This document shows, in pieces, positions 1 through 32,000 of a DNA stretch of 32,000 nucleotides. The translations under genes were made by a program, and so were the position numbers. The stretch is taken from positions 210,001 through 242,000 of the forward strand of contig JAUIDC010000001.1 of the NCBI GenBank assembly GCA_030429145.1. The letters are read 5' to 3'. This stretch comes from Candidatus Saccharimonadota bacterium (GTDB lineage Bacteria; Patescibacteriota; Gracilibacteria; Absconditabacterales; Absconditicoccaceae). Position 1 is the first letter of the stretch. Each line of letters opens with the position of its first letter. A model generated the notes under the pieces. It did not search any database and was not told the origin of the DNA. It worked only from the letters and a program-made list of their open reading frames with translations.

Positions 1-248
1 AATGGTTGAAACACAATCCATTTATCGCACTTGGCACGATGATCTGTGCAGCGGCTGAACTACGCGTTGATAGCTCACCTATGTGAGGATTCGATCGCGA
101 ATGATTTACAAAAGTGCTACAACTTGAAGAAAAAAAGCTGACACCACTAGTACTCCTAGGGCTTGGCTATAGAAGCAAAGATGATAAAGCAGCAGAGCGC
201 AAGAAAGTAAGGTGGGATCATGAAGACGTCATCATCCGTCTTGATTAA
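1..248 (+). CDS. nitroreductase-family protein, C-terminal fragment (5' end outside window)
   Basis: The frame from nt 3 reads ...IALGTMICAAAELRVDSSPM-G(TGA)-GFDRE-G(TGA)-FTKVLQLEEKKLTPLVLLGLGYRSKDDKAAERKKVRWDHEDVIIRLD, with TAA at 246-248. The M-G-GFD and LG(Y)...R...V C-terminal pattern is typical of NfsB/FRase-type nitroreductases. Confidence 0.65.
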
Positions 249-251
249 CTG

Positions 252-1106
252 CTACCCCAATAGACGAGATAATACGACAAAAAACAGCACCATCCCCGAA
301 AGTGTATTTACTCGAGGAAAGATTTTATATATAGAGAAAAGTGTTCATTTTTTATATTGCCACAATGCTACTATCATCAGCGCTATATAGAGAACGCCTA
401 GCAGTCCGAGAATCCAATGATAGAAAAAAGCGATGCTACCTGCCAAAAGATAAAGCAAGAGGCACAAGAATATAGTCCCCAAACCTCAAAGCAACGTTGC
501 GACGGTATCTACCCCTCACTCCTTATCAGCTTGTATGTCAGGCACAGCTGAAAATGCATGCATCGCCATAGCCCAGGCCAGTGCGGCAAGCACAAACATC
601 CAGCCAATGTTTTCTGGTCCAGCGATCAGCAAAAATCAAAACAGCGCTGTTGTTACATAATGTCATGCACTGAAAAACATATCTAGCAACGGTAGACCTT
701 TCGCTCTTATCGGCTTTGCCGAATACTGTCCTGAGAAAAAGAGGAAAAGCAAGAACGCTACGATAGGAGCGATCTCCCATGGGATAAATAAAAGAAAAGG
801 AAGTGTTGAAAAAGCTATTCGCCTCCACAGTTTTAGATGCTCTTTCGGTTCAACAAGAGCCTCATAGGCCTGTTTCTTTGGATTGAGCTTATCTGTTTCA
901 TAGTCGTAGATGTCGTTGATCCCGTATATCCAAATGTTTGCAGGGATGAGAAAATATAAAAAGAATACAGCGATGAGGAACCACATACTCTTATCTCAAG
1001 GCACACCAAATAGTGCCATCCCAGCTATAAGACCAATCATGTATGGCCCCAGTTCATATATTCGAAATCTTGGTCTAGAAATACGCAACACTCTCTGCAA
1101 ATGCAT
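252..1106 (-). CDS. UbiA-family prenyltransferase in a carotenoid cluster (lycopene-elongase-like)
   Basis: ATG at 1104-1106 and TAG at 252-254. The N-terminus is MHLQRVLRISRPRFRIYELGPYMIG. The first Asp-rich motif is NDIYDYETDKLNPKK and the second is PDIQADKEGGVDTVATLLG. The protein is multi-TM and read through 6 in-frame TGA. It lies directly downstream of crtB. Confidence 0.75.
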
Positions 1107-1133
1107 AGTTATATGAGAACAAAAGATAAAAGA

Positions 1134-1976
1134 TTATCGGATATGTTGTAATAAAATACGACCTTTATCAACTTTCGTTGTTCTCGCCGAATGAGAAAAA
1201 ACATCATAGTTGTTTTTTTCTATTTTTCTGAGTATTCACTGATAGAGCTTTGATGCGAGAAAGATAGGTTTCTGAGCAAACTCAGGCAAAAACTGTAATC
1301 ACTCCTCTGCCTCAGCATAAAGCTGATCTGCATGTTCAATTTGCACACGCATAAAATCTTGCCGTGACGCATCAGGATTTTCTCTTCATTCTACATACGC
1401 ACGCACATCATCGTGCGATAAGCCATGTTGACGAAGCTCTTCTTGTGGCATATAAATGCGCTGAAAGTCTCTTCGATCCTCCGCTACATCACGCAAAAAG
1501 TTAGTAAGTTGCATGGCCTCTCAAAGCGCTCTCGCATATGGCAACGCGTGCTCTTTATCAGCGTCCACCAGATAACACATCATCTCTCCGACCACCATGG
1601 CAGAACCATACATATATTGTTGTAACTCCTCATATGTCTCATAAAGACTCTTCTCTGTATCCATTAACATCGCATCCCAAAAACTCTCGCTAGAGAGAAA
1701 TGGGATCTTTTTACGATGAAAAAGCTCTACGGCACTGCCCCAACGCTCATGTGCTATATCTTTTTCCTCATATGCTTTCTGCCACTCTTTCCACATCTCT
1801 TGGAGTATCCTCTTTGCATCTTGTCCCGATCTCTCTTTATCGTCTACGACCAAATCAGGGATGCGAACAAACGCATACAGTGTCATCACATCCTTCTTTA
1901 CATGACGAGGAAAGAACAATGTCGCATAGTAGTAACTTGTTCCATACTTTCTCATATAGTATGACACTGAACGCAT
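1134..1976 (-). CDS. crtB: phytoene (or dehydrosqualene) synthase
   Basis: It starts MRSVSYYMRKYGTSYYYATLFFP...YAFVRIPDLVVDD. After the TGA at 1521 it continues G-EAMQLTNFLRDVAEDRRDFQRIYMPQEEL, the canonical squalene/phytoene synthase signature. TAA is at 1134-1136. Confidence 0.9.
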
Positions 1977-3458
1977 CTAGTGATTTTTACCTGCTAAAAC
2001 TCTTTGCGCAGTCAACTCTCATGAGATGAGAGCCATTTGTGTACCTATTCATGGATTCGTATATGCTCATGTATAGTACAGACCCTTTACTTTTTTGCTA
2101 TAGTTATTTGGTCTAAATGCTGACGTTTGCATGAAAGTATGTGCTAAACCAAGTGCCGTGCCTTTGTATGCATTATATCTCTCCTGAAAATGCTTGATAT
2201 GGAATAACTTTTGATATCTGATACGATCTTGTAGATCGGGTATGTGACACACCTGTGAAATCATCGCCAATATTTTCTCTGTGTAAGCATCTTCCTGTCA
2301 CTGAGAGAGCTCAACACCTGGTGGACATGGCACGAGTACAAACATGTTTTCATGGCCTGCAGGCGCAACTGTATCATCACTCTCACTTGGTTTACAAATA
2401 TAGAGTGACGGATCTGTCGGCATCTCTTTCGTCTTAAAGATCTCTGCAAAGTTTTTCTTCCAGTCCTCGGTAAAGATCAAATTGTGATGTGTCAGCATTG
2501 GTAGCTTCCCCGCTACACCCAAGTAGAGAATATATGCTGAAGGAGCAAGTACTTTTTTCTTTCGATACGACTCAGGATAGGTTTGTTCATGTTTCTCGAG
2601 CAAAACCGTCTCTGTAAAATGCATATCCGCATTGGAAACGACGATGTCTGCCTCAGCGGTTTTCCCATCAGCAAGCTCTATTCCTGTTGTTCTACCATCT
2701 TCTGTCACGATACGAGTGACGGGGCTATTCACATATATTTTCACTCCATTTTTCTCTGCTATAGACTGCAACGACCTAATAATCTCATAGAGTCCTCCTT
2801 TAGGATACCATACGCCCTGCGCAAAGTCCACATGCGACATAAGTGCATAAATTGCCAGTGCATCATAGGGAGATGTTCCCAAAAAAAGCAAAGGATAACT
2901 CACTATTTTCTGCATCTCAGCACTCTTAAAAAATCTTTTCACATAACTCGCCATCTTCTGAAACACATTGAGCCTGATCCCATCTATAAATGTATCCCAT
3001 GAAAAAAAATCTAATACTGAATCGTAATTTCTATACACAAACTTCTTCATCGCGATAGTATACTGATACGACGCACGACATAGATACTCCTTAAATGGCT
3101 TACTCACACCCTTTTCTATCTTCTCAAATGTTTCCAAGTCTCTCTCAAGATCCGCAGCAATATCCACGATACGATTTTGCGGAGTAAAAAAAATTCTATA
3201 ACTTGGATCTAGTTTGGTCAGCTGCAAATGCTGCGTAATATCTTCCTCAACCTGTTCGTAAAAACGTTCAAACACATCAGGCATAAGATATCGACTTGGT
3301 CACATATCAAACCTATACCCATCCTCTTCGAGTAGCGATGCTCTTCCTCCCACATGATCATTTTTCTCGTAGAGGCTAACCTCATATCCGGCGCGTGCAA
3401 GATAAATTGCAGTGCTTAAACCACCTATTCCTCCACCAATGACAACAACTTTTTGCAT
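1977..3458 (-). CDS. crtI: phytoene desaturase (FAD-dependent, CrtI family)
   Basis: The N-terminal Rossmann motif is MQKVVVIGGGIGGLSTAIYLARAGYEVSLYEKNDHVGGRA. The C-terminal part reads YNAYKGTALGLAHT..FRPNNYSKKVKGLYYT-G-AYTNP-G-IG. Four track fragments join across TGA. TAG at 1977-1979 abuts the crtB ATG. Confidence 0.9.
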
Positions 3459-3478: not shown

Positions 3479-4753
3479 TTAAATAATGTTTACTAGTTCA
3501 CTGATATGTTTCATCCTCTGATGATCAATGATACTCATCTTTTCTCACATCTCTTTTCTTCTTTTCTCGTGCAATTTAGTAGGCAAAATTTGTCCGCCTA
3601 GACCTATCTCTCCTAGAAAAAGGAGATTTTTATCAACGACAATATTTTTGTATTGCGAATAGATACCTGCCGCAATAGCGAGATCAAGTCCACTATCCTT
3701 AAATGAAAACTCTCCTGGGATGTTCACAAAAATATCAAATCGACCAAGGTTTGCTTTTAAGTATCTCTCCAAAATAGCCACAATGAGATTTACTCTTGCA
3801 GGGTCAACTCCAACGATTTGACGGGTAGGAAACTTTCCTTTGGTCTTATTGAGGAGCACCTCTAGATGCACCACTACTGGACGACCATTGTCGATGCCGA
3901 CGGTCAGCACAGAACCGGGTATCGTCAGATTTGCCGAATTAATAATGCGTTCCTTAAGGTCATAAACCGGCTTGAGACCAAATAAGGTCATCTCAAAGAT
4001 CGCAACCTCATCGGTATTACCAAAACGGTTTTTGATGCAACGTAAGATACGATATTGTCAGTAGCGATCTCCTTCGAGATAGAGAACCACGTCAACAAGA
4101 TGTTCAAGATATTTAGGACCAGCAATCTCTCCACCTTTCGTCACGTGTCCTATCACCCACGCAGTGATATTTTTCTTTTTGCATAGCTCTGCTATCTTCT
4201 CTGCACAGTATTTAACCTGAGCAGGGCTACCAGATGCATTATCAATATTTTCTGAATAGATCGTCTGGATAGAGTCTATGATAATAAGATCATACTGTCC
4301 CGTCTCTGCTGTCAGTAAAATATCCTCTAGATGATTTGCATGAAAGATATCCATATGTTCATTCTGTTTATCTTCCGTAATCCTTGCTTGACGATCAACT
4401 ATCTGATCACTTTGTTCCTCACCTGAAAAATATGCCACACGTTGCGTCGTAAACTGTTGTACTATCTGCAAAGCAATAGTCGACTTACCAATACCTGGCT
4501 CTCCACCAAGGAGATAGACTCCTCCTTGTTTCAGTCACTTTGGAAAAATACGAGCAAGCTCTGTGTCTGATAGTGGGATATACTGCGAAGATTTCTTTTC
4601 AGTCACTTCTAGCTCTTGCCCTGTTGCAATCCCCTTCTTTTTTGACTTTCCTGTTATCCCACGCACTTCCGAAAATGAACCAAATGCTCAGCACTCCGAA
4701 CACTTTCCTAGCTTTACTGCACTGCTATGTCAGCAATCATTACATACGTACAT
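3479..4753 (-). CDS. radA: DNA repair protein RadA/Sms
   Basis: The zinc ribbon is MYVCNDC-G(TGA)-HSSAVKLGKCSEC-G(TGA)-AFGSF. The Walker A is GGEPGIGKST, followed by the KNRFG motif and a Lon-like C-terminal domain. TAA is at 3479-3481. Confidence 0.9.
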
Positions 4754-4890: not shown

Positions 4891-6132
4891 ATGGCAATGA
4901 GACAACTCAAAATCACCAAGGCAATTACCAATCGTGAATCACAATCACTTGAAAAATATCTACAAGAAATTGGGAAAATAGACCTCATCACTCCAGAAGA
5001 GGAGGTCCAACTTGCCCTACGTATAAAACAAGGAGATCAAGTCGCATTGGAAAAGCTGACGAAAGCCAATCTTCGTTTTGTAGTATCTGTTGCTAAACAG
5101 TATCAAAATCAGTGACTCTCTCTTTCGGACCTTATAAATGAATGAAATCTTGGTCTCATTAAAGCTGCCCAACGTTTTGATGAGACAAAAGGATTTAAAT
5201 TTATCTCATATGCCGTATGGCGAATTCGTCAATCAATTCTCCAAGCATTAGCTGAAAACTCACGCGTCGTTCGTCTTCCTCTCAATAAAGTCTGAATGTC
5301 CAATAAAATTAGTAAAGCCTATTCCAAGCTTGAACAAGACTTTGAACGTGAACCGTCTTCTGAAGAAATAGCCGAGATGCTCGAACGAGAAGTCGAGGAA
5401 GTCGAAAACACACTCTGAATAGGCGGGAAACACGCATCATTAGATGCACCTTTTGCTGGCAGCGAAGGAGAAGATGCTTTAACACTACTCGATTGTTTGA
5501 CATGATCAACAAGCGACTCTCTTTTGGAGGCTCTCGATCAAGAAGATCTCAGAACTCATATTAGATGTGCTCTTGCAAAGCTTACCAAAAAGGAAGCACA
5601 GATTGTTTCTCTCTATTTTGGCTTCGAGGGCGAACCAATGTCTCTACAAACTATTGGGGAAAGTCTTACTCCACCTCTCACTCGTGAAAGAGTAAGACAG
5701 ATCAAAGATAGGGCTGTGTGAAGACTAAAAAGGATTTTGCCAGATGTTATCAAATGAAATCATTTGTCGAAAGATTACGTTTCTCAAAATACTCGTACTA
5801 CTCCGAGACAAAGAGAAGAAATGAAGGGCAAACAAGAAGAACTTACAGAGACCCTCAATGCCTCCGCCCACTCTGTTTGGCAAGAACTACCGCTTGGATT
5901 GCGCTGACTGCCAAAAGACGTCCAGATTACTTGGATTATACAACACTCTCCGCTTGATCCGCATCATCAAGAGATGGCACTTCATTATTTTGTGAGAAAA
6001 AACTATAATCTCAATATTACTAAACCCGGGAATGAAAGCCTCAACGACCATTTCGTCAGAGAAGCAAAGCTGAAACGACAACCCAAAATTGAAAAAGTAC
6101 TAGGAAAGAAAATAGATTTTATCGGAAATTAA
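4891..6132 (+). CDS. rpoD: primary RNA polymerase sigma-70 factor (Bacteroidetes-like short RpoD core) with a 125-aa C-terminal extension under code 25
   Basis: It reads [29 protein letters not shown]...[58 protein letters not shown]...[26 protein letters not shown]. The 288-aa core ends at the TGA at 5755-5757. The first TAA/TAG in frame is at 6130-6132. Confidence 0.85.
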
Positions 6133-7193
6133 ATCTTCCTCAAAAGCTCAATAATTTGCTGAAAATACTGTCAGTACTCCGGTACGGGCAGTTTTATTTT
6201 AGAGAGAAGTTTTTCTGCTTCGGAAAGATACTCTTCGACTTTTTCTTTTCCGTATGCTACTGCTCCACTATCTATGAACACTTGGCGCAGTTCATCAATT
6301 TGAGGCTTTGAAAGTCTCTTACCCATAGCACTACTAATAGCCAAGCGGTGTGCGTATTTACCAGTTTCGTAGATATACTGTGTTAAGTAGGTCTGTTGAC
6401 CATCCTGGATGTCAGAAAACTTTGTCTTGTCATCATAGTGCGTCGTCTCATAGCCCTCCTCTACGATCACATCAAGAAGATCATCACGCATCTGATAGGC
6501 CTTTCCAAGGACTTCACCAAGTTTTTCAATTTTTTTACACTCTGCTTTCGACGCCCCTGCTAACAATGCTCACGTCAACATAGGTCTCACAAAAGTATAC
6601 TTCCCTGACTTATAATGATTTTTTCTCTCTAACAACTCCTGGTCAACACCATCTCCTACCATAATATCTACATCTATTACCTGTCATGCAATCACCTCTT
6701 CTACTGTCTCTTGTACATTACGAATGGCTTGCTGGATAAGCTCTTTCGAGATAGTGTACGAACTATACAGGACATCATACACCCATGAGAAAATAAGATC
6801 TCCCATCAAAATAGCCTGAGCTACACCAATGTGCTCTTTGTTTGTTGATGAAAGAAGACCTGCAACAAAAGTGTGATATGTAGCAACGCCGTGCCTCATC
6901 TCACCTTTGTCTATGATATCATCGTGTACGAGAGCCATGCTATGTAATAGCTCATGAGACTGAGCAAAGCGCATCAGCTCTTTTTCATCAGCCATACCAC
7001 CATATGCCTTGTGCGTAATGTACACAAGGTAAGGTCTTACACGCTTTCCTCCGCTAAACATAAAATCTTCTATATATGCCACAATCTGTTGCATTCTCGT
7101 TGACGAAGCAATCTTTTGCGACTCTTTTATTTTATCAGTAACATACTTTCTCAATTGCTTATCAAACACTGTTTTAAATGACTTAATGTCCAT
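6129..7193 (-). CDS. polyprenyl diphosphate synthase (FPP/GGPP synthase family)
   Basis: The first DDxxD is LVHDDIIDKGEMRHG and the second is KAYQMRDDLLDV. Three track fragments join across TGA. The tail ...[20 protein letters not shown] ends at TAA (complement of 6129-6131). Confidence 0.85.
6167..6200 (+). terminator. rho-independent terminator-like hairpin after the rpoD reading frame
   Basis: The arms are ACTGTCAGTAC/GTACGGGCAGT (11 positions: 9 Watson-Crick pairs, 1 G-U, 1 mismatch) with loop TCCG, followed by TTTTATTTT. It lies inside the 3' end of the convergent polyprenyl synthase gene. Confidence 0.45.
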
Positions 7194-7293: not shown

Positions 7294-7590
7294 CTAATTG
7301 CACTGATCACAATCTTTTCTATGTTTTTTTGCCCAAGCGACGATAGTTGAAGTCGAAAGTTCATATTTTTGTGCTACGCTACGCGCATCCAAATCATTAT
7401 GACAGTAAGCATCTACGACCTTCTTACGAAAAGCCTCATCGTACGTTCACCTCACACCTCACAGCGTAAACTGTTTATGACAATCTGTACAGCGAAATCT
7501 CTGTCAGCCCTTTGGGAGCTGACCATTTTTTTGTACATGTTCACCATGACAGTATAAGCACTCTCTGAGACGTTTGAGATGCTTGTTCAT
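7294..7590 (-). CDS. IS1 InsA-like zinc-ribbon + HTH protein (orphan, no transposase partner)
   Basis: It reads MNKHLKRLRECLYCHGEHVQKNGQLPKG-G-QRFRCTDCHKQFTL-G-GVR-G-TYDEAFRKKVVDAYCHNDLDARSVAQKYELSTSTIVAWAKKH. The CxxC...G.QR(F/Y)RCxxC pattern followed by an HTH matches InsA/IS1595 N-terminal modules. TAG is at 7294-7296. Confidence 0.6.
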
Positions 7591-7614: not shown

Positions 7615-8082
7615 TTACTTTCTCTTGAGAGATACCGTAAATTTATTTTTTAATCCTGTTTTTTCAAGGATCATATCTCTTCGCCAAAATGCAACTGTAA
7701 CAAATAGTACGATAATAATGAGCGCAAGGTATTCTACCTGTTCATTATGTTCTTCATGATGTACCTCAAATCCTATCCAACGAGGCAAGATATGAAGTAA
7801 CACGACATGTGCTACCAGCATAACAGTTGAGATAGAAAGAAATCTTCCTGCTGTCTGTCTATCCGCCCAGCGGTGCGTCCACCACCAGTTGATCAGACCA
7901 AGTACGATAACTCCGCCAAGATGGAAGAGTTGGATAAGTCCCTCATAAGCAAGTAGATCCTCCAGATGTAGATCTGAAAGAAATGCAAGTATAATAAGCT
8001 CTACCACAAGGATAAGGATATTGTAGACGAGCGTTGCAACACAAATTTTGTGTTCAGTAAACGAGTGTGTGTGACCGTGCAT
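7615..8082 (-). CDS. hypothetical His-rich integral membrane protein
   Basis: A 155-aa intact ORF with 4-5 hydrophobic helices, starting MHGHTHSF and containing a HHEEHNEQ segment. No motif was recognised. Confidence 0.45.
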   Translation of the reverse strand: MHGHTHSFTEHKICVATLVYNILILVVELIILAFLSDLHLEDLLAYEGLIQLFHLGGVIVLGLINWWWTHRWADRQTAGRFLSISTVMLVAHVVLLHILPRWIGFEVHHEEHNEQVEYLALIIIVLFVTVAFWRRDMILEKTGLKNKFTVSLKRK

Positions 8083-9306: not shown

Positions 9307-10323
9307 TTAGGCCGTACGTTTTTTTCTCACGTAGACGCCGGGAGTTTTCTCCATGATAAGTCAGTTTATCTCGAGTAGACTCACAGTGGTGAAAATGTCT
9401 GTGACAGTTCAGCGCGTATATGCCACAAACTGGCTGATATTAGCTTCTCCATGGTGGTCTATACATGCAAGGAGCTGTTGCTCTTCAGTGGTTAGTTGCT
9501 CCATCGCTCAGCTCTGCCGCTCGACTCCGTTCCTACGCGAAAAATACTGAGCCAAGAACTGATCCAAGCGGTCGAGCGGCAGTCTCTTCCCCGCAGCGAT
9601 CTGCTCATTGCTTCCTGCAGAAGAGTCTGCAAAGATACTCTGCATCGGCGCATAGACAGGCTTATTGAGCTTGTTTCACATCTCTGCCGTGATAAGCGAG
9701 CCCGAGCCCCTCTGCGCCTCCGGCAAAAAGATCAGATCAGCTAACCCAGCTATCAGGCGATTACGCTGCGGGAACGACCAGTCAGTCGGCACAAACTGAT
9801 GTTTGTATTCTGAGAGAATCATCCCTCCCTCACGGACAATCTGCTGCATCATCTCCCTCCTTCTACTTTTGAGATAATAGGCAAATCATCACCCCAATAC
9901 AGCTACTGTCGGGATCTTATGGCGAATCGATAAGTTATGAGATAACATATCAACGCCATTTGCCAAACCAGACACGGTGATGAGATCATACTGCGCTAGT
10001 TCCTCAAACAACATATGTATCACCTGCTCTGCGTAGGAACTAAGATTTCTCGGTCAGACAATAGCTATAGTGAGCCTGTTGAGCAGGTCGGCATCTCATT
10101 GAGCAAACAGTACTGCCGGTGCCGAAGGCACCGTCTTACACCTCCACGGATAACCTGTAGTTTCATCGTCCACTACCATACCATATATACTGTTTTTGTC
10201 CATCCGCTGCTCCACGGCAGAAATATCTACCTGTGGTAGCTCGTTATTGGCTTTTATCTGCGCCTGAGTCACCTCTGGGACCGTGGCAAAATAGTATGCT
10301 TTGTAGGGCGATTTTTTGTCCAT
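9307..10323 (-). CDS. dprA: DNA processing protein DprA (Smf)
   Basis: Motifs include TIAIV-G-PRNLSSYAEQ, ITVSGLANGVDMLSH, TVAVLG-G-G, FPQRNRLIAGLADLIFLPEAQRGSGSLITAEM and a C-terminal winged-helix-like tail. TAA is at 9307-9309. Confidence 0.85.
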
Positions 10324-10531: not shown

Positions 10532-11953
10532 ATGAGAACACACATCAAGACGCACTCACATCTACGAAAGAAAGTTGCCATTGTAGCGCTCCTTTTGACA
10601 CAAGCAACATCATTTGTGTTCAATGGAAAAGGCTTCAGTTGGTCATACCCACTCAAAGAAGTTTCTAAAAATGAGTGTAGAAAAATCCACTGGGATCAAC
10701 TTTCGGATGACTGTAAGCAACCCCTTCCAGAGATTGACAATGCAAACTACAATGCATACGTAAACAATCCTACCTATAGACTTATCTATAGTGTTCTCTG
10801 GGGTGGTACATACAATGACGGTTGGGACAACGATAAAGGCGGTCATGAAGGTGTAGACTTCGTAAGTTCTGAGGGAACTCCAGTATATTCTGTCGAAGAT
10901 GGAGTTGTTATCAAAGCAAGAGCACAAGCAGGTTACGGTAATGTAGTCGTTATCAAACACACCCTCGACAATGGAAATCCTGTCTACTCAACATACGGAC
11001 ATCTTTCAAATATTACTATCCCTGAAGGTATGTGGGTAAACGAAGGTGATATGATCGGAAGAGTTGGTCATGAAGGACTAGCATACGGAGACCATCTTCA
11101 CTTCGTTCTCAATACTACAGCTGACAACACCTACGCTTTCCGAGGTTGTCCTGATCTTTCAAGAGGTGAAATTGCCATCGGTAATCTTGGTCTTTGTAGA
11201 AACTACCTTACAGAAAGAACTGTTGATCCTATCGCATGGATCGAATCACAAGGACGTATAAACACTACCCATGGCATCCTCGCAGATACACACAATCACA
11301 GTAACGAAGCTATAACAAACTCAAATACTACAACTACCAACAACAAACCAACAGGAAGAAGAAGAATGCCTATCATTCCACTTCCCCCTGTCATCAACAA
11401 TACTTCTACAAACCCAGCAGTAAAAGAAAAAGCAGTATCAACTCCTATCAATGAAACAACTACACAAAAACCTACAAACAATACTACCAACAACACATCA
11501 AATACTACTACCACAACCACAACACGTAGATCACTCCCTTCAACAACACAAAATACTACTGCATTCGCATCGGTAGATAGTCAAAAGAAATCGACTGGTC
11601 CTGCAACGATAGAAGTGAACAACTCTACTAAACTCGGAGAAGACTTCCTCACAAAATATAATGTAGATATTGATACGTCTTTTGGTAACAGTATGACGGT
11701 AGGTCAAACAAGTAGCCTTGTTGTTACTGTCACTGATAAGAATACAGGAGCTCCATATGTAGGCATGCTTCCAAAAGAGATTACTATCATCCCTTCTGAA
11801 GCACTCTTTACACTCTCTCCTCAGGTAATCAGATTGACTAACAGCGAAGGTAAAGCACTTGTACTCATGAGTGCAAACAGAGCTGGAACAAGCGACCTTG
11901 TTATCTTCTACAATATGAAATCATTTGCTAAGATAGCTGTTAGCGTAAAATAA
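10532..11953 (+). CDS. secreted M23 (LytM-type) peptidoglycan endopeptidase with Thr/Asn-rich linker and C-terminal Ig-like domain
   Basis: The N-terminus is hydrophobic. The zinc-site motifs are GGHEGVDF and GDHLHF. A low-complexity T/N/P linker spans about 11290-11560. The C-terminal domain is beta-rich (TVTDKNTGAPYVG...). There is no in-frame TGA. The ATG at 10532 is preferred over the TTG at 10520. Confidence 0.85.
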   Translation: MRTHIKTHSHLRKKVAIVALLLTQATSFVFNGKGFSWSYPLKEVSKNECRKIHWDQLSDDCKQPLPEIDNANYNAYVNNPTYRLIYSVLWGGTYNDGWDNDKGGHEGVDFVSSEGTPVYSVEDGVVIKARAQAGYGNVVVIKHTLDNGNPVYSTYGHLSNITIPEGMWVNEGDMIGRVGHEGLAYGDHLHFVLNTTADNTYAFRGCPDLSRGEIAIGNLGLCRNYLTERTVDPIAWIESQGRINTTHGILADTHNHSNEAITNSNTTTTNNKPTGRRRMPIIPLPPVINNTSTNPAVKEKAVSTPINETTTQKPTNNTTNNTSNTTTTTTTRRSLPSTTQNTTAFASVDSQKKSTGPATIEVNNSTKLGEDFLTKYNVDIDTSFGNSMTVGQTSSLVVTVTDKNTGAPYVGMLPKEITIIPSEALFTLSPQVIRLTNSEGKALVLMSANRAGTSDLVIFYNMKSFAKIAVSVK

Positions 11954-13720: not shown

Positions 13721-14203
13721 TTACTGTTTTTTTATAGCAAGTCCATCAATATTTCAACCCTCAAATAGCACTGTGGCATCGGTGAGAGTTATATCCTCTG
13801 CACTACCCTTAAACGAGATGAGCGCAAGCTGTTCATCTGCCTGAAGAGGCTCCTCAAAAAAGAGCGTCACATGCATCTGTCCTTCTTCTCCTGAAGAAGA
13901 AGTGTAGTCGTATCTCGTTTCTATTGCTTGCTCTTCAACCTCAACGGTTTCTGGATTGTAAACAACCATGAAGCTGAGAGAATTTGCTCATTCAAATGTT
14001 TTTTCAGCTCTCACTGTCAATGTGTTTGCTTCGCTCTCGTAACTAATGTCTCCACGTACAGCAGAAACAGCACTGCCCTGCAGTATATCTGCACTAAGCA
14101 AGCCTGATTGGTTGATACCTACTGACACTGCAGCCACTAGGATCATGGCAACACCGATTGCCACTATATGTTCCGATGCATGACTTCTACGAGATTTTCT
14201 CAT
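13721..14203 (-). CDS. hypothetical N-terminally membrane-anchored protein, probably co-transcribed with the surface protein
   Basis: It starts MRKSRRSHASEHIVAIGVAMILVAAVSVG (TM), followed by a beta-rich ectodomain. Two track ORFs join at the TGA at 13988, and a second TGA lies near the end. TAA is at 13721-13723. Confidence 0.5.
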
Positions 14204-18764: not shown

Positions 18765-19577
18765 TTATTTTTTGTCTACCACTATTCCCTTATTTTTCAC
18801 ATTTCTTGTCTCCCATTTAATTTTGATAAGTTGCCAGTTCTGTATGAGATATTGGATGATTGTAAAGACTGTCGTCGTGACAAGATAGATACCTACACCA
18901 CTCGGTGTACCGTAGATAAATGAACCCATCATAAATGCCATGAAGATGTTCATAAATCCCATCATCTTTGTCATGTCTGGCATCTTTTGCCCACCAGGTC
19001 AAAGCTTCGGTGCCGCAGCTTTATTTTGATTGAGCGCGATGAGTTTAGACTGCACATAGATAAGGATCGCACCGACAATTGTTAGTCCCCAGTTTTGCCC
19101 AGTAAGAAGGTCTATCCCAAAGAACCAATGGTTGATAGCATCAGTACTCAGATACTGTGATGCGAATGGTGCTACGAATGAGTAGATATCTGCTGGGTCG
19201 AGAACATCTGCTCCTGCAAATGCGCGGATCACATAGAGAAGCCCGAAGAATACAGGTATCTGTACAAGTATCCCCATACATCCTTTGAGTGGCCCAAGGC
19301 CATCAGACTTCATCACCTTCATCGTCTCCTGTGAAAGCCTCTGTGGATCATCTGCATATTTCTCTTGGACCTCTTTAAGCTTCTCCTGCATGTTCCCCAT
19401 ACCCTTCTGCATTTGGGTTTGGTTAGAGCTTACTTTCCATAAGAGCGCTCTAATAAGTAGTGTGAGTACAACAATAGCCCGACCGAGATGCCCGCCAAAA
19501 AGCGCAAGTAGCATAACCAGTATATTAAATATCGGACGATATATAAGTTCAACAGCGATAAGTTTTATTGGATTCAT
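18765..19577 (-). CDS. yidC: membrane protein insertase YidC/Oxa1 (short form)
   Basis: It reads LTLLIRALLWKVS...MQEKLKEVQEKYADDPQRLSQETMKVMK...GCMGILVQIPVFFGLLY. Two track ORFs join at the TGA at 18999. The ATG at 19575-19577 is preferred over the TTG at 19580. Confidence 0.85.
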
Positions 19578-19692: not shown

Positions 19693-20223
19693 ATGAAGAA
19701 AAAAACGAATAGAACATTTACGTTGATAGAGATGCTAATAGTCATTGTGATTATTGGTATTTTAGCTGCAGCTCTAGTTCCAAGATTAACCTCAATTCAA
19801 AGTAGAGCAAGAGACAGCAAAAGAAAGATTGACCTCAAAGCTATCTACAATGCAAATGAAATTCATAAGCTCGACTATGGCTACTACGCAGCGTCGGGTT
19901 CATACGTACAAAGTAGTGCAGCACAACCTCGAATGTCATGACTTACTGGATACTTAAGTAGTCTCCCAGTAGACCCAATAAATGACTATATTTCCGCCTC
20001 TCCTCTTGCTACAGGAACATATTTGTATACATATATCAGTCTGTATGGAGAAGGTTACTACTCATTAAGTGCAATGTTGGAAAACACAAAAGACCCTGAA
20101 AGATGCTGAGTTAAAACATATGTCTATAGCTCAAATCTCATACCAAGATGTTGAGCAGGCCATCTTGGAACAAGCCAACTCTACTATTACGATCCACCAA
20201 ATATGTTAGCAGGGAAGCATTAG
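19693..20223 (+). CDS. type IV pilin / GspG-like pseudopilin, paralog B
   Basis: It reads MKKKTNRT-FTLIEMLIVIVIIGILAAALVPRLTSIQSRARDSKRKIDLKAIYNANEIHKLDYGYYA...PVDPIN...LENTKDPERC-G-VKTY...RC-G-AGHLG...YYYDPPNMLAGKH. TAG is at 20221-20223. Confidence 0.85.
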
Positions 20224-20291: not shown

Positions 20292-20822
20292 ATGCAGAGA
20301 CAAATAAAAGCTTTCACACTGATCGAAATGCTGATAGTCATCGTGATTATCGGTATTTTGGCTGCGGCTTTAGTTCCAAGGCTTACTTCTATACAAGAAA
20401 GAGCCAGAGATACAAAGCGCAAGACAGACCTCAAGACAATATACAATGCAAATGAGATTCATAAGCTCGACTATGGCTACTACGCAAACTCTGGAGCATT
20501 CATCTATAGTAGTACCGTAAGTACATGGATGACTGGACTTGCTGGAACATATCTCACGAGTGTACCAGTAGATCCGATCAATATCACTCTTGCCTGATTT
20601 TCAACGTGAGCATACAACTATAAATATCGAAATACTTATGGCGAAGGATACTACTCTCTCATGGCTATGCTAGAAAACCAGAAAGATCCTGACAGATGTG
20701 GAGTAAAATCATATCTCTACTGGCCTGGTAGTTATCAAGTCAGATGTGGTGCTGGGCATCTATGACAAAGTCAGCTCTATCTCTATGACCCCAACAATAT
20801 CATTAACGGTAAGCACAATTAA
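20292..20822 (+). CDS. type IV pilin / GspG-like pseudopilin, paralog C
   Basis: It reads MQRQIKA-FTLIEMLIVIVIIGILAAALVPRLTSIQERARDTKRKTDLKTIYNANEIHKLDYGYYA...PVDPIN...LENQKDPDRCGVKSY...RCGAGHL-G-QSQLYLYDPNNIINGKHN. TAA is at 20820-20822. Confidence 0.85.
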
Positions 20823-20850
20823 GCCACCGTTGACTTATTTTATTTTCATA

Positions 20851-20887: not shown

Positions 20888-20893
20888 CTGTTT

Positions 20894-21206: not shown

Positions 21207-23252
21207 ATGACGGATAATCATCTTGCAAAGTTTTATAGCGGTCCCGCCAGTATTCTGGCGGACCAACGCATACTGACAGCCGTCAGTATTTTTTTGCAAA
21301 CTACACAACAAGAGATCATAGATGTATTCCTACTCAGACAACAGTCAAAGCACCAATCTGAAGACGGACAAACGATAGGACAAGGGTACATACATTATCC
21401 TAAAAGAGAAAAAAAGAAATTTAGATATATCACCGAACCACTACCACAGTTGAGGAGTATTCAAGAAACTATTCTTTTTACTCTACAAGGAATTGAACAG
21501 CGCCATAGTATCATGCAAGAGGAACTAGAAGTATATGCTCGTCTGCAAGGCCACAATGTTGATATCTCACATATCAACAATCATCAAAAGGGACTTCAAT
21601 TTAACGAATCACCAATACAAAAAACCGCTATACATAGAGATGCTCGTATAGACAGACCCTACACTGTAGAAGTAGATATTGCCAATGCTTATTCTTCTCT
21701 ATCCGAAGAGAAACTTTTTTTCATACTACAAGATTTACTAAAAACACAATATAACATACTCCCCTTCAAAGCTCTTTCTCCCCTCGAAATACAAAAAGCA
21801 ACCGCACTCATAGGACATTTTCTCGCTTACGACAATCACCTTGCAACGTGAGCACCTACTAGCCCGTATATTTTTCATAAAGCCCTGAAAGCAACAGATG
21901 AAGACATAGTGGACACGTTAGCATCAACACCTATTGAAAATCCAGTATACACAAGATATCTTGATGATATTTATATTACATTCGACAGAATCAATACTCC
22001 GACTTCTTCCACCATCACAGAGTTTGCCTCATCTCTCTATCAAATATATGACCACCTCGAAGATGAGTGAACAATCGATGTCATCCCTAGACTTGCCAAA
22101 CTGCTACCAAAAATGCAACATTTTTTTACTGGTGCAGAGGTCATCATCAGCGATAACGATGCAAAAAGAGAGACAAGAAAACAGCTCGTAGAACTAAGAT
22201 CACTACTCATTGATTTTAAAAACATGTTATTGCATCGACCAGAACACGCCCTAGAATATAGCATCCAATATGTAGACGGATGATTGTCGGAAGAGTATTT
22301 TATAGAGTATTTTGAAAAAACTCTTACCATCCTCAATCGTTTATCAAATAGTTTATGAAAGAGCTTATTTACCACGATCAAAGCACTAGATTGATTCAAA
22401 AGAAAGCTAGATAAGACAACTCCTGACTATGAAATCACAAAGGAAAGCATTCAATTCGATATTGAGAAAATTTTAAGGAAGCATGGATGGCCAGTCAATA
22501 AGTCAAAGATAAAGACAAGATGACCATCTTCTCCATCCATGAGTACGATGCTTGGATTAGGAATAAACAACAGCAACAAAATTACAATTCCAAGCTGAGA
22601 GATAAAAAGAAAATTAGAAATGTACCGAAACATCCTTACGGATAAATCTCCTATTCCTCGCCACTTCAAACACAAAGAAAGTGGTATCTTAGATTATTGG
22701 AAAATACTAACCTCTCTGCAAGGATACAAAGAATATATTCTTGAAATAAAGTGAGCTGATAAAAAAATTTCTAAAAAAGAAAAAATGCAATATATGCGTC
22801 ATCTAGATGGAATTTTCACAAAAGAAGAGGCAATCCTTATCAGAAGAATAGAGAAAAAATGTGCTTCACACTTTGGCATTAGTGTAGAAGAAGCACATGA
22901 ACTTATTTTTTCGGCCCGAACAGTAGAAAAAGAACAAGCATATGCTATGAGAAAAGGAAGAGCCTATCAGGATGGTGATATTATTTTTGATGAAAACGGA
23001 GAGCCAGTAGATACAAGAGATATTCCTCGGGAGTTAGCAGATTCAAATCTCCCCCCTTTTGAAGAACTATATAACGAGAACTGGTATGATCCAACGAAAA
23101 TACCATGATATATTGACGAATCTCTTGCCCCCATTGATGAGAGAGAGATCCCATGGGAACTACTAGCAGAACAGAAACAAGATAATAATAGAGAGGTTGA
23201 ATCAGAAAAACACGACAACCGACCTGATAATATCGATGATCTACCATTCTAA
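21207..23252 (+). CDS. stand-alone reverse transcriptase (retron/UG-Abi-like palm motifs) with internal insertion and long acidic C-terminal extension
   Basis: RT motifs in order are KFRYITEP / LRSIQETIL (1-2), VEVDIANAYSSL (3), T-G(TGA)-APTSPYIF (4), YTRYLDDIYITF (5, YxDD), ILRKHGWPVNKSKIKT (6) and MLGLGINNSNKITIPS (7). The protein is 681 aa read through 9 TGA. TAA is at 23250-23252. The ATG at 21207 is preferred over the TTG at 21162. Confidence 0.85.
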
Positions 23253-23316: not shown

Positions 23317-24741
<1,425 letters not shown>

Positions 24742-24759: not shown

Positions 24760-25386
24760 TTATCTATTCTTCTTTCTTTCCATATATTCTACGATAACCT
24801 CGCCCAGTGTTTCTACTAGGATATCAAATTTTTCGTCACGTCAACCATTGTCCTCGTCATCACGATCAGTATCGATGAGACTTGGTCCATAGCTTTTTTC
24901 CTTTCGTGCAGCGACGATCGCAGCCTGTTTTTTAGGCTGTGGTACATGATGAAACGGATAGGTAATATCATGTTCCAGACGAATAATAATATCACCAGTG
25001 TTCCATGCTGCATCCATAAGACCGCTTTGCTCATATGTGATAGACTGTATATTCTCCCAATAGACTGTTTCTGTCTTATACTGGAGAAATCCATTCCACG
25101 TGAGGATAGTTATACCTCTTTCCGTGATGATCATCGCATCAAAGTAATCATTGAGGACGCGCATCACGAAAAAAGCATAGGTCATCAAACCAAGCACACC
25201 AAAGATCATGGTTGCTATCTCCCAGTCTACATACAAACGTACAAGACGGTAGATAAGCAAAAAGATAAAGAGTATCGCCAGATGTTTGATGGCCGTTTTG
25301 ATATATACTAAGATATCGTGCCCGATAATGTGCTCGATATCATCATGGTTAACATACTGTTTGATAACAAAGGTTCTCAGACTCAT
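24760..25386 (-). CDS. membrane protein with bacterial PH (bPH_2/YdbT-like) domain
   Basis: Two TM helices are followed by ITERGITILTWNGFLQYKTETVYWENIQSITYEQSGLMDAAWNTGDIIIRLEHD. It reads through the TGA at 24841 to TAA at 24760-24762. Confidence 0.6.
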
Positions 25387-27961: not shown

Positions 27962-28507
27962 ATGGTTTTATCATCAATGTTTACGTATAGAAAACTCTCT
28001 TTTACGTTAATAGAAATGCTAATAGTTATCGTTATTATAGGTGTTTTGGCGGCAGCTTTAGTACCGAGACTCACCTCTCTGCAAGGTAGAGCAAGAGACA
28101 CCAAACGCAAGGCAGACTTCACGACCATCTTGAATGCAAATGAAATATTTTTTATAGACAACACGAGATATGCTTCACATGGATGAGTTGGCTATCTTGT
28201 CAGCACTGCCTCTCAACCTTGGATACCTGAACTGTCAGGCGTACTAGCGACCATACCTACTGACCCGATCAATGACAATGCTTATTATAGATACACCTAT
28301 GCGTCTGTCTATGCTACACCTGTACACACCTACGACCTGCATGTTTCGTTAGAAAATCGTAATGACCCAGACAGATGTGGGGTTAAGGTCTACTACTCCA
28401 ACACCCATTTCCCGAGTAGCCATGTACGTTGCAGTTTATGACAAACAGGTATAAACAACGGAATGATCTACGATGTTTCTCCAAACATTAAAAATTCTGT
28501 CTACTAA
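27962..28507 (+). CDS. type IV pilin / GspG-like pseudopilin, paralog D
   Basis: It reads MVLSSMFTYRKLS-FTLIEMLIVIVIIGVLAAALVPRLTSLQGRARDTKRKADFTTILNANEIF...PTDPIN...LENRNDPDRCGVKVY...RCSL-G-Q. TAA is at 28505-28507. Confidence 0.8.
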
Positions 28508-28512: not shown

Positions 28513-29112
28513 TTACTCTATACTCATATCCATATCGTCTGAACGTCTACGCTTGATAAGCGTTGGGATTTTGATGTTTGACATAAGAAGGATCGTCACC
28601 AACGTGTGCAAGAAAAGCCACACTGGCGTCATTTGGATGAAAGCAAATACAACCGGGTTAGCACTAAATCCCTGCGCAATCATCGTCATTTTGGTCATAT
28701 TGAAAGCGTCGGTACCAATGATAGCGAATTCCAGTGTCATGATGATACTGACCACGGTCAACGGAACAAAAAGTATCGTCAACATAAATCTCTTAAATCA
28801 TGATGCGTGCATACTCACGCGCAGATGTGACTTCAAGAAAATCAACAAAAGAAGCAACAGATATACTGCAAGGATGACCGTCGTTTTATTCTCCTGCAAA
28901 AACAACAAGCTTTCACGTGTTCCTGGATAGAGAGAGTCAATCCACAACACAAACCAATCTATCACTCCCCAAAGCGCAATACATAAACCAGTGAGCATAT
29001 AGTTTGCTATCACTACTTTTATCATCCTCTCTAGGCCTATCGCCAAAGAGAATACACAAAGGATACCAATTGACCCGAAAATAAAATATTCCAAATTGTC
29101 CATGGATGCCAA
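28513..29112 (-). CDS. hypothetical polytopic membrane protein located between pilin genes
   Basis: Two track ORFs join at the TGA at 28798, giving about 6 hydrophobic helices. The start is TTG at 29112 or ATG at 29103. TAA is at 28513-28515. Confidence 0.5.
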
Positions 29113-29187: not shown

Positions 29188-30000
29188 ATGGGTATGTCAA
29201 ATAAAAAATGATTTACGCTGTTAGAATTAATCATCGCCATCGGTCTACTAGGTGTTGGATTGATTGCTGTATTCGTAGTACTCAATAGTGGATTCAATAC
29301 GATGCGTCAAGCAAGATGACAGGTCACAGCTATTAACTTAGCAAGAGAGTGAGCTGAGATGATGTTCAATGTCAGAGACACAAACCTTCGCAAATGGTCT
29401 GGTAAGAAAGATGCCTGCTGGCTCAACAGAAAGTCTGTCTATGCGGCAAGTGATGCAGCGTGCGAAAACGAACCATGGATTGGCTACTATTATAGCTCTA
29501 CAGGAATTTCTTATATACCTGTCTTTGCTCCTTTCGGTAACAGTCAAACACCTATTGTTATCCCTATGACTGGAAACTCTCTCAACATCTTTGATGGAGA
29601 GATAGCAAATGATGCGTGATATGAGCTACTCACCACAGCGAGTGGCGAATTTCTGCCTTTCCCATTTTTTGAATGATCACAAGGACTTGCAAGTTGTTAC
29701 ACGATCCTCAGCGGCGAACTCAAGACTACTGATGATGGATGTATACCACAAAGACTATCTCCTGCGGGGAAATTCTACAGATCTATTAGTAACGTTTGAC
29801 TCTACGACAAGCACACCTCTACAACAGGTGGAAGGAATCTGCAGTGCGCAGACGGTTCAAGCACCGACTCTGCCACTAGTACTGCATGTGGCACATCTAT
29901 AGCGAAAGAACTGCGTTTCTGTTCAGAAGTACAGTATATCGTTGATAACGCCAGAAGAACCGTCACGATGTGTTCGGTTATGAGTAATTTCAAGGAATAA
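29188..30000 (+). CDS. minor pilin / pseudopilin (PilV/GspI-like) with canonical G|FTLLE prepilin motif
   Basis: It reads M(GM)SNKK-G(TGA)-FTLLELIIAIGLLGVGLIAVFVVLNSGFNTMRQAR-G-QVTAINLARE-G-AEMM. The C-terminal domain is Cys-rich (8 Cys). TAA is at 29998-30000. Confidence 0.7.
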
Positions 30001-30005
30001 GGAAA

Positions 30006-31748
30006 CTACCTATCAAACAAAGCATCCAAATCCCCTTTCGTCATCTTGATGAAAAATGGTCTTCCGTGCTGGCAGACGAACATGCCATCGATGTGAGAAA
30101 ATCCGTCTCTTACAATATTTTGCATTTCTATGTGTGAGAGTTTTTGTCATGCCTTGATAGAAGACTTACATGCTTTCATCGCATAGAGCTCATCGAGGAT
30201 GATGTCAAATGACAATGGCGATGTATGTAGTACAATATTGAATAGCTTCTCTATGTTGATCTGATATTCGACAAAAACTTTTGGCACTGCATAGACTACG
30301 AGTTTATTTTCTCAAAAAAGTTCAATATCAAAACCTAGCTTTTTAAGCTCCTCTATCTTCTCATCTATCACCACTGCTTTTGGTATATCCATGCTCACCG
30401 GCTGCAATAATTTTTCTGGTGACATTCCATCTTCTTGCGCTTTCTTTTTCATTTTCTCAAAAGCAATACGCTCGGCAAGTGCATGTTGATCTATCAGATA
30501 CATACCATCATCTGCTTGGAGCATAATGTACATGTTTCGAAGCTGTCAGATGATAGTATATTGTGACTGATCAGCCTGAATGTGCATCTCCTCTTGCTCT
30601 GTTCACGACTTCACATTGACGTTGTCATTGAATGAGAAATTGAGCATGGATCATTGTCCATGAGCAGCGCGAAATGGATTATTTAAGAAATCACTGCCGT
30701 TTTTTGAAAAGGTAGCCGACGCGATTTTATCAATTGTTTCGCGAGGTATATCAATGATTTTTTCGTGTCCCAATGCATTTTTTACTGCAAGATGTACTGC
30801 TTGATAGATACTTCCTGGATCTGCAAAACGCACCTCCATCTTTCTTGGATGCACATTGACGTCAACATGTTCAGGATCGACATCGACAAACAAAAGTGCC
30901 AGTGGATATTGTCCCGGATGAATCTGTCTTTCGTATGCACTCAGCAATGCTTTTTTCAATATCCTATCCTGCACTGGACGAGCGTTAACGAAGATACGAA
31001 TATTTTCCTGCGAACCAAACGTGAGCGACGAATCAGAAAGCACACCATACATACGTAGTGGCGACTGATCGAAATCCAAGACGCGAACATTGCTCTCTCG
31101 CTCTTTCTTAAAGATGTCTGTAAAGCGAGTTAACAGATCTGTCGCTATTGGTAGGTCAAAGATGATCTTTCCATCTTTCTGCAACACCCAGCGTTTATCT
31201 CGGTGAACCAGTGCAAAATTCACAAATAGATCATGACAATAAAAGTACTCTGTTTGCGCCGACTTGAGAAATTTTTGCCTTACTGGTGTATTGTAAAAAA
31301 GATCTTCGACAATCACAGTCGTTCCATGCCCTCACGCAAAGCTTGATGGCTTCAGCGAAATCTCATCAGCGATCTTGGTCAATGTCTGCCCTACCGTACT
31401 ATCAGCACGTTTCGTCTGGATGGTCAACTTACTCACCTCTGCGATAGCCGCTAATGCCTCACCACGGAAACCATACGAGCTGATCGAATACAAATCCTCT
31501 TCCTCCAAAATCTTACTTGTCGCATATCTTTCTATCACAAGCTCCATATCTTCCGTTTCTATCCCATCTCCATCATCTTCTACTTTTATCAATTTTCTTC
31601 CACCATCATGAAGATCTACCACGATCTCTTCAGCACCTGCATCAAGCGAGTTTTCTACAAGTTCTTTCACCACCGAAGCAGGACGTTCGACCACCTCTCA
31701 CGCCTTCAATCTGTTTACTAGATAGTCTGGAAGTCTTTGAATCGCCAT
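30006..31748 (-). CDS. mutL: DNA mismatch repair protein MutL
   Basis: It reads [39 protein letters not shown]...DDGDGI...[12 protein letters not shown]...[12 protein letters not shown]. The C-terminal dimerisation domain contains [27 protein letters not shown]. It has 7 in-frame TGA. TAG is at 30006-30008. Confidence 0.9.
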
Positions 31749-31825
31749 CAAGAAATCATTTTTTAACTACAAAATCGTCTGTCGAGAATATATTTATTTT
31801 ATCAGTTCATGCAATGATATTATCA

Positions 31826-32000
31826 CTATAGTGCTACTAAATATGGCAATCCAATCATCATCACCCATATGCCCACTATCATTCCCGGGAAGAAAGGGAT
31901 AAGGCGTTTCTCGCCTTCTTTGGTGATGGGAGTGACAAAAAGCAATAGCAAGGCACAGAGGCATGCAACTATGACGTAATATCGGAAATATTGGATGATA
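31826..32000 (-). CDS. membrane protein C-terminal fragment, possibly A24 prepilin peptidase (5' end outside window)
   Basis: ...VACLCALLLLFVTPITKEGEKRLIPFFPGMIVGIWVMMIGLPYLVAL ends at TAG (31826-31828). The basic loop followed by IPF(G/F)P plus a final TM resembles the PilD/A24 C-terminus. Only 57 aa are visible. Confidence 0.35.
   Translation of the reverse strand, partial: IIQYFRYYVIVACLCALLLLFVTPITKEGEKRLIPFFPGMIVGIWVMMIGLPYLVAL

Follow-up and report, generated by a model that had tools for sequence, protein, structure and literature searches.

The stretch of DNA considered here, called the window, comprises 32,000 nucleotides of contig JAUIDC010000001.1 (positions 210,001 to 242,000; assembly GCA_030429145.1), and the subject of this study is the genetic code in which its genes are written. 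We consider it very likely, with a probability of roughly 0.9, that the window is a piece of chromosome, densely packed with genes, from a not yet cultured bacterium of the Absconditabacteria (SR1) type, in which UGA would specify glycine, CGA and CGG would specify tryptophan, only TAA and TAG would act as stops, and arginine would be carried by CGU, CGC, AGA, and AGG. These three codon meanings are shown by alignments with homologues from standard-code organisms, by codon exchange with related genomes, and by profile scores. A preliminary description, made from the sequence alone, had read TGA as glycine and had assigned translation table 25 to the window. The glycine assignment stands, as does table 25 for UGA; its provision that the other codons are standard does not, as CGA and CGG behave as tryptophan codons. 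Both parts of the code are already known, UGA as glycine having been published in 2013 and CGA/CGG as tryptophan in 2021. Since both have been published and the window appears to belong to the same clade as the genomes in which they were reported, the code found here is not a new one.

Coding Capacity and Gene Model

The GC (guanine plus cytosine) content of the window is 41%, and an Rfam scan of it gave zero matches. When translation stops only at TAA and TAG, non-overlapping open reading frames (ORFs) of at least 80 codons occupy 94% of the window; the coverage drops to 70% once TGA is also counted as a stop. The long ORFs were translated with TGA written as X, which kept Pfam matching free of bias. 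A gene model curated over the whole window comprises 9,518 codons in 32 genes, and the codon counts that follow refer to it. There are 125 in-frame TGAs, spread over 24 of the 32 genes, and eight genes have none. No internal TAA or TAG is present, no frameshift is needed to keep the genes open, and the terminal codon is TAA in 25 genes and TAG in the other 7. These counts agree with two statements of the preliminary description, namely, that nearly every conserved gene is broken only at TGA and that every gene ends at TAA or TAG after re-joining. With the glycine reading, TGA supplies 19% of the glycine codons (125 of 673).

Pfam matches cross the TGAs at full length, as follows. Amino_oxidase is matched from 1 to 443 of 443, YceG from 3 to 275 of 275, and DNA_processg_A from 13 to 209 of 212. 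The SQS_PSY match extends from 1 to 260 of 263, running through four TGAs, and sigma-70 regions 1.2, 2, 3, and 4 are all matched despite TGAs. The matches to polyprenyl_synt, UbiA, YdjM, TPM, and YidC likewise run across TGAs.

TGA as a Glycine Codon

Sequence comparison provides good support for reading TGA as a sense codon for glycine. The genes that bear most directly on this assignment are as follows.

3..248, plus strand: 3′ portion of a gene of the nitroreductase family; with TGA as glycine, Pfam Nitroreductase matches at 1.1e-5
1134..1976, minus strand: phytoene/squalene synthase (CrtB-like); Pfam SQS_PSY and PDB alignment
1977..3458, minus strand: phytoene desaturase (CrtI-like); alignments to PDB 4rep and 4dgk
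3479..4753, minus strand: RadA; alignment to PDB 5lkm
4891..6132, plus strand: sigma-70 family factor of 413 residues; PDB alignments to RpoS and SigA
9307..10323, minus strand: DprA; alignment to PDB 3uqz
14307..15392, minus strand: MltG/YceG; alignments to PDB 2r1f and 4iiw
17179..18084, minus strand: TPM-domain protein; 14 TGAs; Pfam TPM_phosphatase, 5.3e-29
21207..23252, plus strand: retron-type reverse transcriptase (RT) of 681 residues; PADLOC RT_III-A, 9.7e-18
30006..31748, minus strand: MutL; 7 TGAs and 3 CGAs; alignment to PDB MutL

The homologues of solved structure (PDB) come from standard-code organisms. Thirty-two TGA sites could be aligned to them and were counted in the best PDB homologue. 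The preliminary description had proposed such a tabulation, with alignment to tryptophan or to random residues counting against its claim. Glycine stands opposite 16 of the 32 sites and tryptophan opposite none; the remaining 16 are variable positions, occupied by K, D, E, H, Q, A, S, or T. TGAs fall on conserved glycines in the sigma factor, MutL, RadA, MltG, DprA, CrtI, and CrtB. In the sigma factor, the TGAs at 5113-5115 (QYQNQ-TGA-LSL) and 5143-5145 (LINE-TGA-NLGLIKA) occupy invariant glycines of region 2, and in MutL the TGA at 31698-31700 (LKA-TGA-EVVERP) is the invariant glycine of GEVVERP. RadA has glycine-aligned TGAs at 4730-4732 and 4688-4690, both in the zinc ribbon (C-TGA), and at 4535-4537, before the Walker motif. 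Among seven standard-code RadA genes from GTDB (L002-L008), glycine is found in five of six at site 8, in six of six at site 22, and in seven of seven at site 73. Conserved glycines are also occupied by the TGAs at 15045-15047 and 14472-14474 of MltG (EG and GLPP), at 10096-10098, 10054-10056, and 9886-9888 of DprA, at 3300-3302, 2067-2069, and 2049-2051 of CrtI, and at 1521-1523 of CrtB, preceding EAMQLTNFLRDV. The RT reads G-APTSP at its TGA 21849-21851, and the nitroreductase has TGAs at 84-86 (M-TGA-GFD) and 102-104. The motifs quoted in the preliminary description, from the sigma factor, RadA, CrtB, MutL, the RT, and the nitroreductase, are all present and on conserved glycines. Its broader statement, that every break coincides with a glycine invariant in the family, holds for these examples and is overstated for the whole set, because about half of the TGAs are at variable positions. 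The C-terminal tail of the TPM-domain protein (17179-17316, minus strand) is rich in glycine (GGFGGGGG...), with 11 TGAs among the last 45 codons, and illustrates at a glance the use of TGA for glycine.

The second line of evidence is independent of existing annotation. The curated genes were aligned, codon by codon, to their orthologues in four syntenic loci, which were reached through MutL and DprA searches. Three of these relatives have MutL proteins close to that of the window (L009, 77% identity; L010, assembly GCA_965231145.1, 74%; L013, assembly GCA_040384245.1, 78%), and the fourth, L014, has a DprA with 47% identity. Of 48 aligned TGA sites, 25 have a GGN codon in at least one relative, 11 have TGA only, 12 have other codons, and none has TGG. 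A GGN partner is found at just 69 of 4,362 non-glycine sites (Fisher p = 1e-30). In MutL, GGN occurs in a relative at six of the seven TGA sites. This excess of GGN pairing, together with the fact that all 125 internal stops are TGA, excludes chance.

Third, ten proteins matching 12 Pfam families were rescored with the codon meanings swapped, and the bits were summed. With TGA as glycine, the sum is 1351.1 bits, versus 1257.8 with TGA as tryptophan, so that glycine is ahead by 93 bits. Glycine outscores tryptophan in 10 of the 12 families, and the nucleoside diphosphate kinase (NDK) family, without a TGA, is unchanged. Scores for individual families are as follows, the first letter in parentheses giving the meaning of TGA and the second that of CGA/CGG.

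Sigma70_r2: 63.6 (G,R), 58.9 (W,R), 66.7 (G,W)
SQS_PSY (CrtB): 212.2 (G,R), 202.0 (W,R), 216.1 (G,W)
Amino_oxidase (CrtI): 141.7 (G,R), 118.6 (W,R), 145.3 (G,W)
YceG: 186.4 (G,R), 169.6 (W,R), 187.9 (G,W)
YdjM: 82.5 (G,R), 89.7 (G,W)
DNA_processg_A (DprA): 188.1 with TGA as glycine, 165.8 with TGA as tryptophan
UbiA: 67.7 with TGA as glycine, 52.4 with TGA as tryptophan
RVT_1 (RT), from separate scans: 29.4 with the corrected code, 20.9 with TGA as X

These data bear on two other explanations of the in-frame TGAs. The first is code 4, in which UGA means tryptophan; Mycoplasma and certain endosymbionts of insects use it. The public copy of MutL and many homologues do show W at every TGA position, and the AAA_25 match in RadA gains 5 bits when TGA is read as W. 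The W in the public collection, however, merely reflects the gene caller's choice of table, and the complete lack of TGG partners in the relatives and of tryptophan in the PDB homologues, along with the loss of 93 bits in the Pfam total, makes code 4 extremely improbable.

The second takes the TGAs as genuine stops or as damage, the genes then being pseudogenes, carrying sequencing errors, or using selenocysteine or programmed read-through at some sites. Under table 11, the genes do look fragmented, as in the code-11 calls on L010 and L013, and nothing else speaks specifically for this explanation. We give it a probability close to nil: TAA and TAG are wholly absent from the gene interiors, frameshifts are unneeded, and the four related genomes preserve the sites, either as TGA or as GGN. 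Pseudogenes and sequencing errors were rejected on these grounds and because the sites align to glycine. Selenocysteine recoding is a rare use of UGA at cysteine or selenocysteine positions of selenoprotein families. It was likewise ruled out, as the TGAs align to glycine, not cysteine, and 125 sites in 24 genes are far above selenoprotein usage.

CGA and CGG as Tryptophan Codons

Going beyond table 25, CGA and CGG also behave as codons for tryptophan when the genes of the window are compared with their relatives. CGA occurs 42 times and CGG eight times, or 44 and 8 per 10,000 codons, and together they would make up 36% of the tryptophan codons (50 of 140). In addition to the genes listed above, those that carry the evidence are as follows.

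252..1106, minus strand: UbiA-family prenyltransferase; 6 TGAs, 3 CGAs; Pfam UbiA
7615..8082, minus strand: membrane protein of 155 residues, free of TGA; CGA 7681-7683 is TGG in L014
8179..9228, minus strand: YdjM-family membrane protein; 8 TGAs, 7 CGAs, 2 CGGs; Pfam YdjM
10532..11953, plus strand: M23 peptidase; no TGA, 2 CGAs, both TGG in L014; Pfam Peptidase_M23
16577..17137, plus strand: pilin-like N_methyl protein; Pfam N_methyl; CGG 16835-16837 where paralogues have tryptophan
18765..19577, minus strand: YidC; 1 TGA; one CGG at 19479-19481
19693..20223, plus strand: pilin-like N_methyl protein; Pfam N_methyl; CGA 19930-19932 where paralogues have tryptophan
20292..20822, plus strand: pilin-like N_methyl protein; 3 TGAs, 1 CGA; assigned by an N-terminal FTLIEMLIVIVIIGILAAAL motif common to the Pfam-scanned paralogues
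24760..25386, minus strand: protein of 208 residues; 1 TGA, 1 CGA; CGA 24906 is CGA in L009 and TGG in L010
25753..26268, minus strand: NDK; CGA 26023-26025
27977..28507, plus strand: pilin-like N_methyl protein; 2 TGAs; N-terminal FTLIEMLIVIVIIG motif
29188..30000, plus strand: pilin-like protein; 6 TGAs, with GGN in L009 or L010 at four of them

Twenty-two CGA/CGG sites could be aligned with the relatives. At 13 of them, a relative has TGG, at three only CGA or CGG is found, and at six the partners are isoleucine, leucine, or phenylalanine codons; CGU, CGC, AGA, AGG, or a lysine codon is the partner at none. Sites with the other arginine codons give the opposite picture, as a TGG partner is found at 0 of 194 (p = 2e-15). 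Conversely, 15 of the 52 TGG sites of the window are CGA or CGG in a relative. Counted as codon pairs, CGA in the window is paired with TGG 14 times, with CGA five times, with CGG three times, with a few isoleucine, leucine, and phenylalanine codons, and never with CGT, CGC, AGA, or AGG; 18 of 68 pairs of window TGG are with CGA or CGG. Of the 287 codon pairs of CGU, CGC, AGA, and AGG, 209 stay within this set of four and one is with CGA/CGG. The codon pairs thus bear out that arginine is carried by CGU, CGC, AGA, and AGG only, AGA being the commonest. In the table of all 64 codons, the departures from standard meaning are TGA, CGA, and CGG, plus TCC, whose flag comes from 12 scattered pairs and is taken to be noise.

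Individual genes display the same pattern. In the invariant YATWWIRQ of sigma region 2.3, the second tryptophan is written as CGA (5221-5223), and L014 carries TGG there. All three CGA sites of MutL have TGG in relatives. In the YdjM-family gene, L014 has TGG at CGA 8976, CGA 8415, CGG 8568, and CGG 8490. The CGA of NDK is TGG in both L009 and L010; PDB homologues have V or L at this position, never arginine. In the PDB alignments, CGA 1473-1475 of CrtB is at an L/Y/F position and CGA 15042-15044 of MltG at an M/Y position; CrtI has a CGA at 3291-3293. The pilin paralogues, compared by eye in translation, are useful internal controls because the positions with CGA or CGG in two of them hold TGG in other copies.

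Taking the two codons separately, a relative has TGG at 11 of 17 aligned CGA sites. For CGG, five sites are aligned: 8568 and 8490 have TGG, 10206 has CGG, 9519 has ATA, and the YidC site ending at 19481 has CTT (in L010), with no arginine codon at any of them. With so few sites, CGG is the weakest part of the proposed code.

Profile scores agree with the codon exchange. With tryptophan at CGA/CGG, the sum over the 12 families is 1378.8 bits versus 1351.1 with arginine (+27.7). Eight of the nine families holding CGA or CGG gain with tryptophan, the other being UbiA (-0.1). The NDK family rises from 137.3 to 140.4 bits, and 60KD_IMP, matched by YidC, from 133.8 with CGG as arginine to 136.8 with CGG as tryptophan (+3.0).

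Plain table 25, with UGA as glycine only and CGA and CGG still arginine, has to be weighed against these results. It fits the evidence for TGA equally well, CGA and CGG are fairly rare, and one CGA in RadA lies opposite polar residues in distant homologues. On the other hand, it leaves the absence of arginine or lysine partners at the 22 sites, the 13 TGG partners, and the near absence of CGA/CGG among the pairs of the other arginine codons without explanation, would turn the invariant tryptophan of sigma region 2.3 into arginine, and costs the 27.7 bits. We regard it as very unlikely.

Comparison with Known Codes and Decoding

The code proposed for the window matches one in the literature. 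Using Codetta, Shulgina and Eddy (2021, eLife, PMC8629427) found both CGA and CGG reassigned to tryptophan in Absconditabacteria, on top of UGA as glycine, and only CGG reassigned to tryptophan in some Gracilibacteria. In a 2026 paper (PMC13092985), this code is regarded as established in Absconditabacterales. Like the window, the Absconditabacteria code has all three reassignments, a CGG rarer than CGA, and arginine written with CGU, CGC, AGA, and AGG.

Translation table 25, the Candidate Division SR1 and Gracilibacteria code, goes back to work by Campbell et al. and by Rinke et al., both of 2013 (cited in PMC8629427). It shares with the window UGA as glycine and TAA and TAG as the only stops, but leaves CGA and CGG as arginine where the window has tryptophan. 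Table 4, of Mycoplasma/Spiroplasma and some endosymbionts, resembles the window in that UGA is translated in a bacterium with a small genome; there, however, UGA is tryptophan, whereas in the window UGA would be glycine and tryptophan would be extended via CGA and CGG instead. Capture of an arginine CGN codon by another amino acid, as proposed here, is also known from Anaerococcus and the RFN20 Bacilli (Onthovivens), in which CGG is tryptophan, and from Peptacetobacter, in which CGG is glutamine (PMC8629427, PMC13092985). Unlike in the window, CGG alone is changed in these bacteria, CGA stays arginine, and UGA stays a stop.

The decoding machinery can be proposed by analogy with the clade literature. 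Absconditabacteria have a transfer RNA (tRNA), tRNA-Gly(UCA), for UGA, tRNA(UCG)/tRNA(CCG) for CGA/CGG, and tRNA-Arg(GCG) for CGU/CGC; tRNA(UCG)/tRNA(CCG) species are classed as tryptophan acceptors when G73 is present and A20 is lacking, and the Candidate Phyla Radiation is without tRNA-Arg(ACG) (PMC8629427). By this analogy, a tRNA-Gly with the anticodon UCA would read UGA, release factor 2 would be absent, tRNAs with UCG and CCG anticodons and tryptophan identity would read CGA and CGG, and tRNA-Arg(GCG) would read both CGU and CGC.

Several observations weigh against the code as proposed. No tRNA gene was detected by a scan of the window, L001, and L009-L013 (L014 lay outside the scan), so that the decoding machinery is drawn from the clade literature only. 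The GC content of the window exceeds the range of 0.26-0.38 given for the clades with reassigned CGA/CGG (PMC8629427). About a quarter of the aligned TGA sites (12 of 48) pair with non-glycine codons in relatives, and for GGN sites the figure is slightly less (52 of 286). AAA_25, a generic model, is the sole family that scores higher with tryptophan at TGA. For CGG, the support is thin, coming from eight codons and five aligned sites, two of which pair with leucine or isoleucine codons. Finally, the CGA at 3740-3742 of RadA (minus strand) lies opposite polar residues (D, Q, N, or S) in the seven distant standard-code RadA proteins. This is a variable position and therefore does not contradict tryptophan, though it is the least comfortable site.

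Taxonomic Placement

The nearest named homologues of MutL belong to candidate division SR1 or Candidatus Absconditabacteria, at 47-51% identity, while relatives without a lineage label reach 71-89%. Within the 120 best MutL homologues, all proteins with a named source come from SR1 or Absconditabacteria, and none bears a Gracilibacteria label. For DprA, the named homologues are from Absconditabacterales and SR1, at 36-37%, with one from Peribacteria at 38%. The preliminary description had placed the fragment in either Gracilibacteria or SR1, and these homologues agree with that group; given PMC8629427, the CGA reassignment favors the Absconditabacteria side. Placement inside Absconditabacterales is probable from these comparisons. 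No close relative was found among GTDB representative genomes, either by an exact 42-mer of atpD or by a RadA peptide-pattern search; the latter returned only unrelated phyla, at 33-36% identity, and these served as the standard-code controls mentioned above.

It could be argued that the code is as described and that the bacterium falls in Gracilibacteria (BD1-5) or in a third sister lineage, CGA as tryptophan then being wider than the reported clade. The low identities to named SR1 homologues, the Peribacteria DprA, the lack of a close GTDB relative, and the GC content above the reported range would fit. Against this are the labels of the best MutL homologues, all SR1 or Absconditabacteria, and the report of CGA as tryptophan for Absconditabacteria only, so far (PMC8629427). 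We think this unlikely and retain the assignment to an Absconditabacteria-type bacterium.

More tentatively, the lineage may be distant from the named SR1 genomes and may have taken the capture of CGA from arginine to tryptophan further than reported, in view of the 36% of tryptophan codons, the frequency of 44 per 10,000, and the GC content. The last two differ from the published ranges, although the frequencies are different measures: 44 per 10,000 refers to all gene codons and the value of <37 per 10,000 to aligned Pfam columns (PMC8629427). We consider this suggestion rather unlikely. If it is true, reassigned codons would have re-expanded after capture; if the pattern is genome-wide and the lineage branches outside the 2021 clade, the stop-plus-sense double reassignment would have a wider phylogenetic range. 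A GC content of 41% lies beyond the low-GC range behind the argument that AT pressure drives codons near extinction before reassignment. To our knowledge, the Absconditabacteria code is the only bacterial code that combines reassignment of a stop codon with that of a sense codon. The window adds one more instance, and its high GC content and use of CGA are mildly informative on the extent of codon capture.

Consequences for Annotation

The chief consequence is a practical one: annotation of this lineage needs UGA as glycine together with CGA/CGG as tryptophan. The preliminary description had warned that any standard-code annotation would be wrong, and the warning was apt and can be extended, since with these codon meanings translations by codes 11, 4, and 25 would all be wrong. 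Table 25 would mistranslate about 50 codons of the window (about 0.5%), including the invariant sigma tryptophan at 5221-5223, because it keeps CGA/CGG as arginine. Examples are already in public collections. The MutL copy P0001, from Logan-derived proteins, has tryptophan at seven of seven TGA positions, that is, a code 4 call, and the gene calls on the NCBI assemblies of L010 and L013 are fragments, that is, code 11 calls. Protein families, structure predictions, and phylogenies built on such translations carry over the errors.

Other Genes and Features of the Window

The remaining genes are as follows.

6129..7193, minus strand: polyprenyl synthase; 3 TGAs; Pfam polyprenyl_synt, 2.3e-37
7294..7590, minus strand: small InsA-like zinc-ribbon/helix-turn-helix protein; 3 TGAs; Pfam Zn_ribbon_InsA, 5.9e-6
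12013..13683, minus strand: secreted protein of 556 residues; 5 TGAs, 1 CGA; from ORF and codon counts
13721..14203, minus strand: protein of 160 residues; 2 TGAs; from ORF and codon counts
15511..16050, plus strand: membrane-anchored protein of 179 residues; 4 TGAs, 2 CGAs; seen only in the recoded translation
16102..16485, plus strand: membrane protein of 127 residues; 2 CGAs
18106..18714, minus strand: LemA; free of TGA; Pfam LemA
23317..24726, minus strand: ATP synthase beta subunit; no TGA, CGA, or CGG; identical product on Logan contig ERR3428547_33923
25420..25659, minus strand: ribosomal protein L31; from the Pfam family given for the called gene in L001
26484..27386, plus strand: protein of 300 residues; free of TGA
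28513..29103, minus strand: membrane protein of 196 residues; 1 TGA

For the polyprenyl synthase, L014 has GGT or GGG at two of the TGAs, and for the InsA-like protein it has GGN at all three. The UbiA, CrtB, and CrtI genes are consecutive on the minus strand (252-3458), and with the polyprenyl synthase nearby they make up a carotenoid-type gene set. The host lineage is usually described as metabolically reduced.

The sigma-70 factor varies in size among close relatives. The orthologous ORF has 785 residues in L009 (15572-17929) and 1166 in L014 (8476-11976), versus 413 in the window; that is, there are large lineage-specific extensions.

The segment from 15393 to 16576, an apparent 1.2-kb non-coding gap, was considered as an RNA locus and rejected, as it holds two small protein genes under the corrected code, the proteins of 179 and 127 residues. 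The frames that greedy ORF picking preferred in this gap are spurious and rich in TGA. The 179-residue protein has no Pfam match.

There are five pilin-like genes, all on the plus strand. Four of them (16577, 19693, 20292, and 27977) are close paralogues with a FTLIEMLIVIVIIG N-terminus, N_methyl being confirmed by Pfam in two, and the fifth (29188) is more divergent.

In the RT, the family match covers about residues 65-280 only, and the C-terminal extension of about 400 residues is without a family match. Upstream of the gene is a non-coding stretch of 384 nucleotides (20823-21206), which could be the site of a retron msr/msd RNA.

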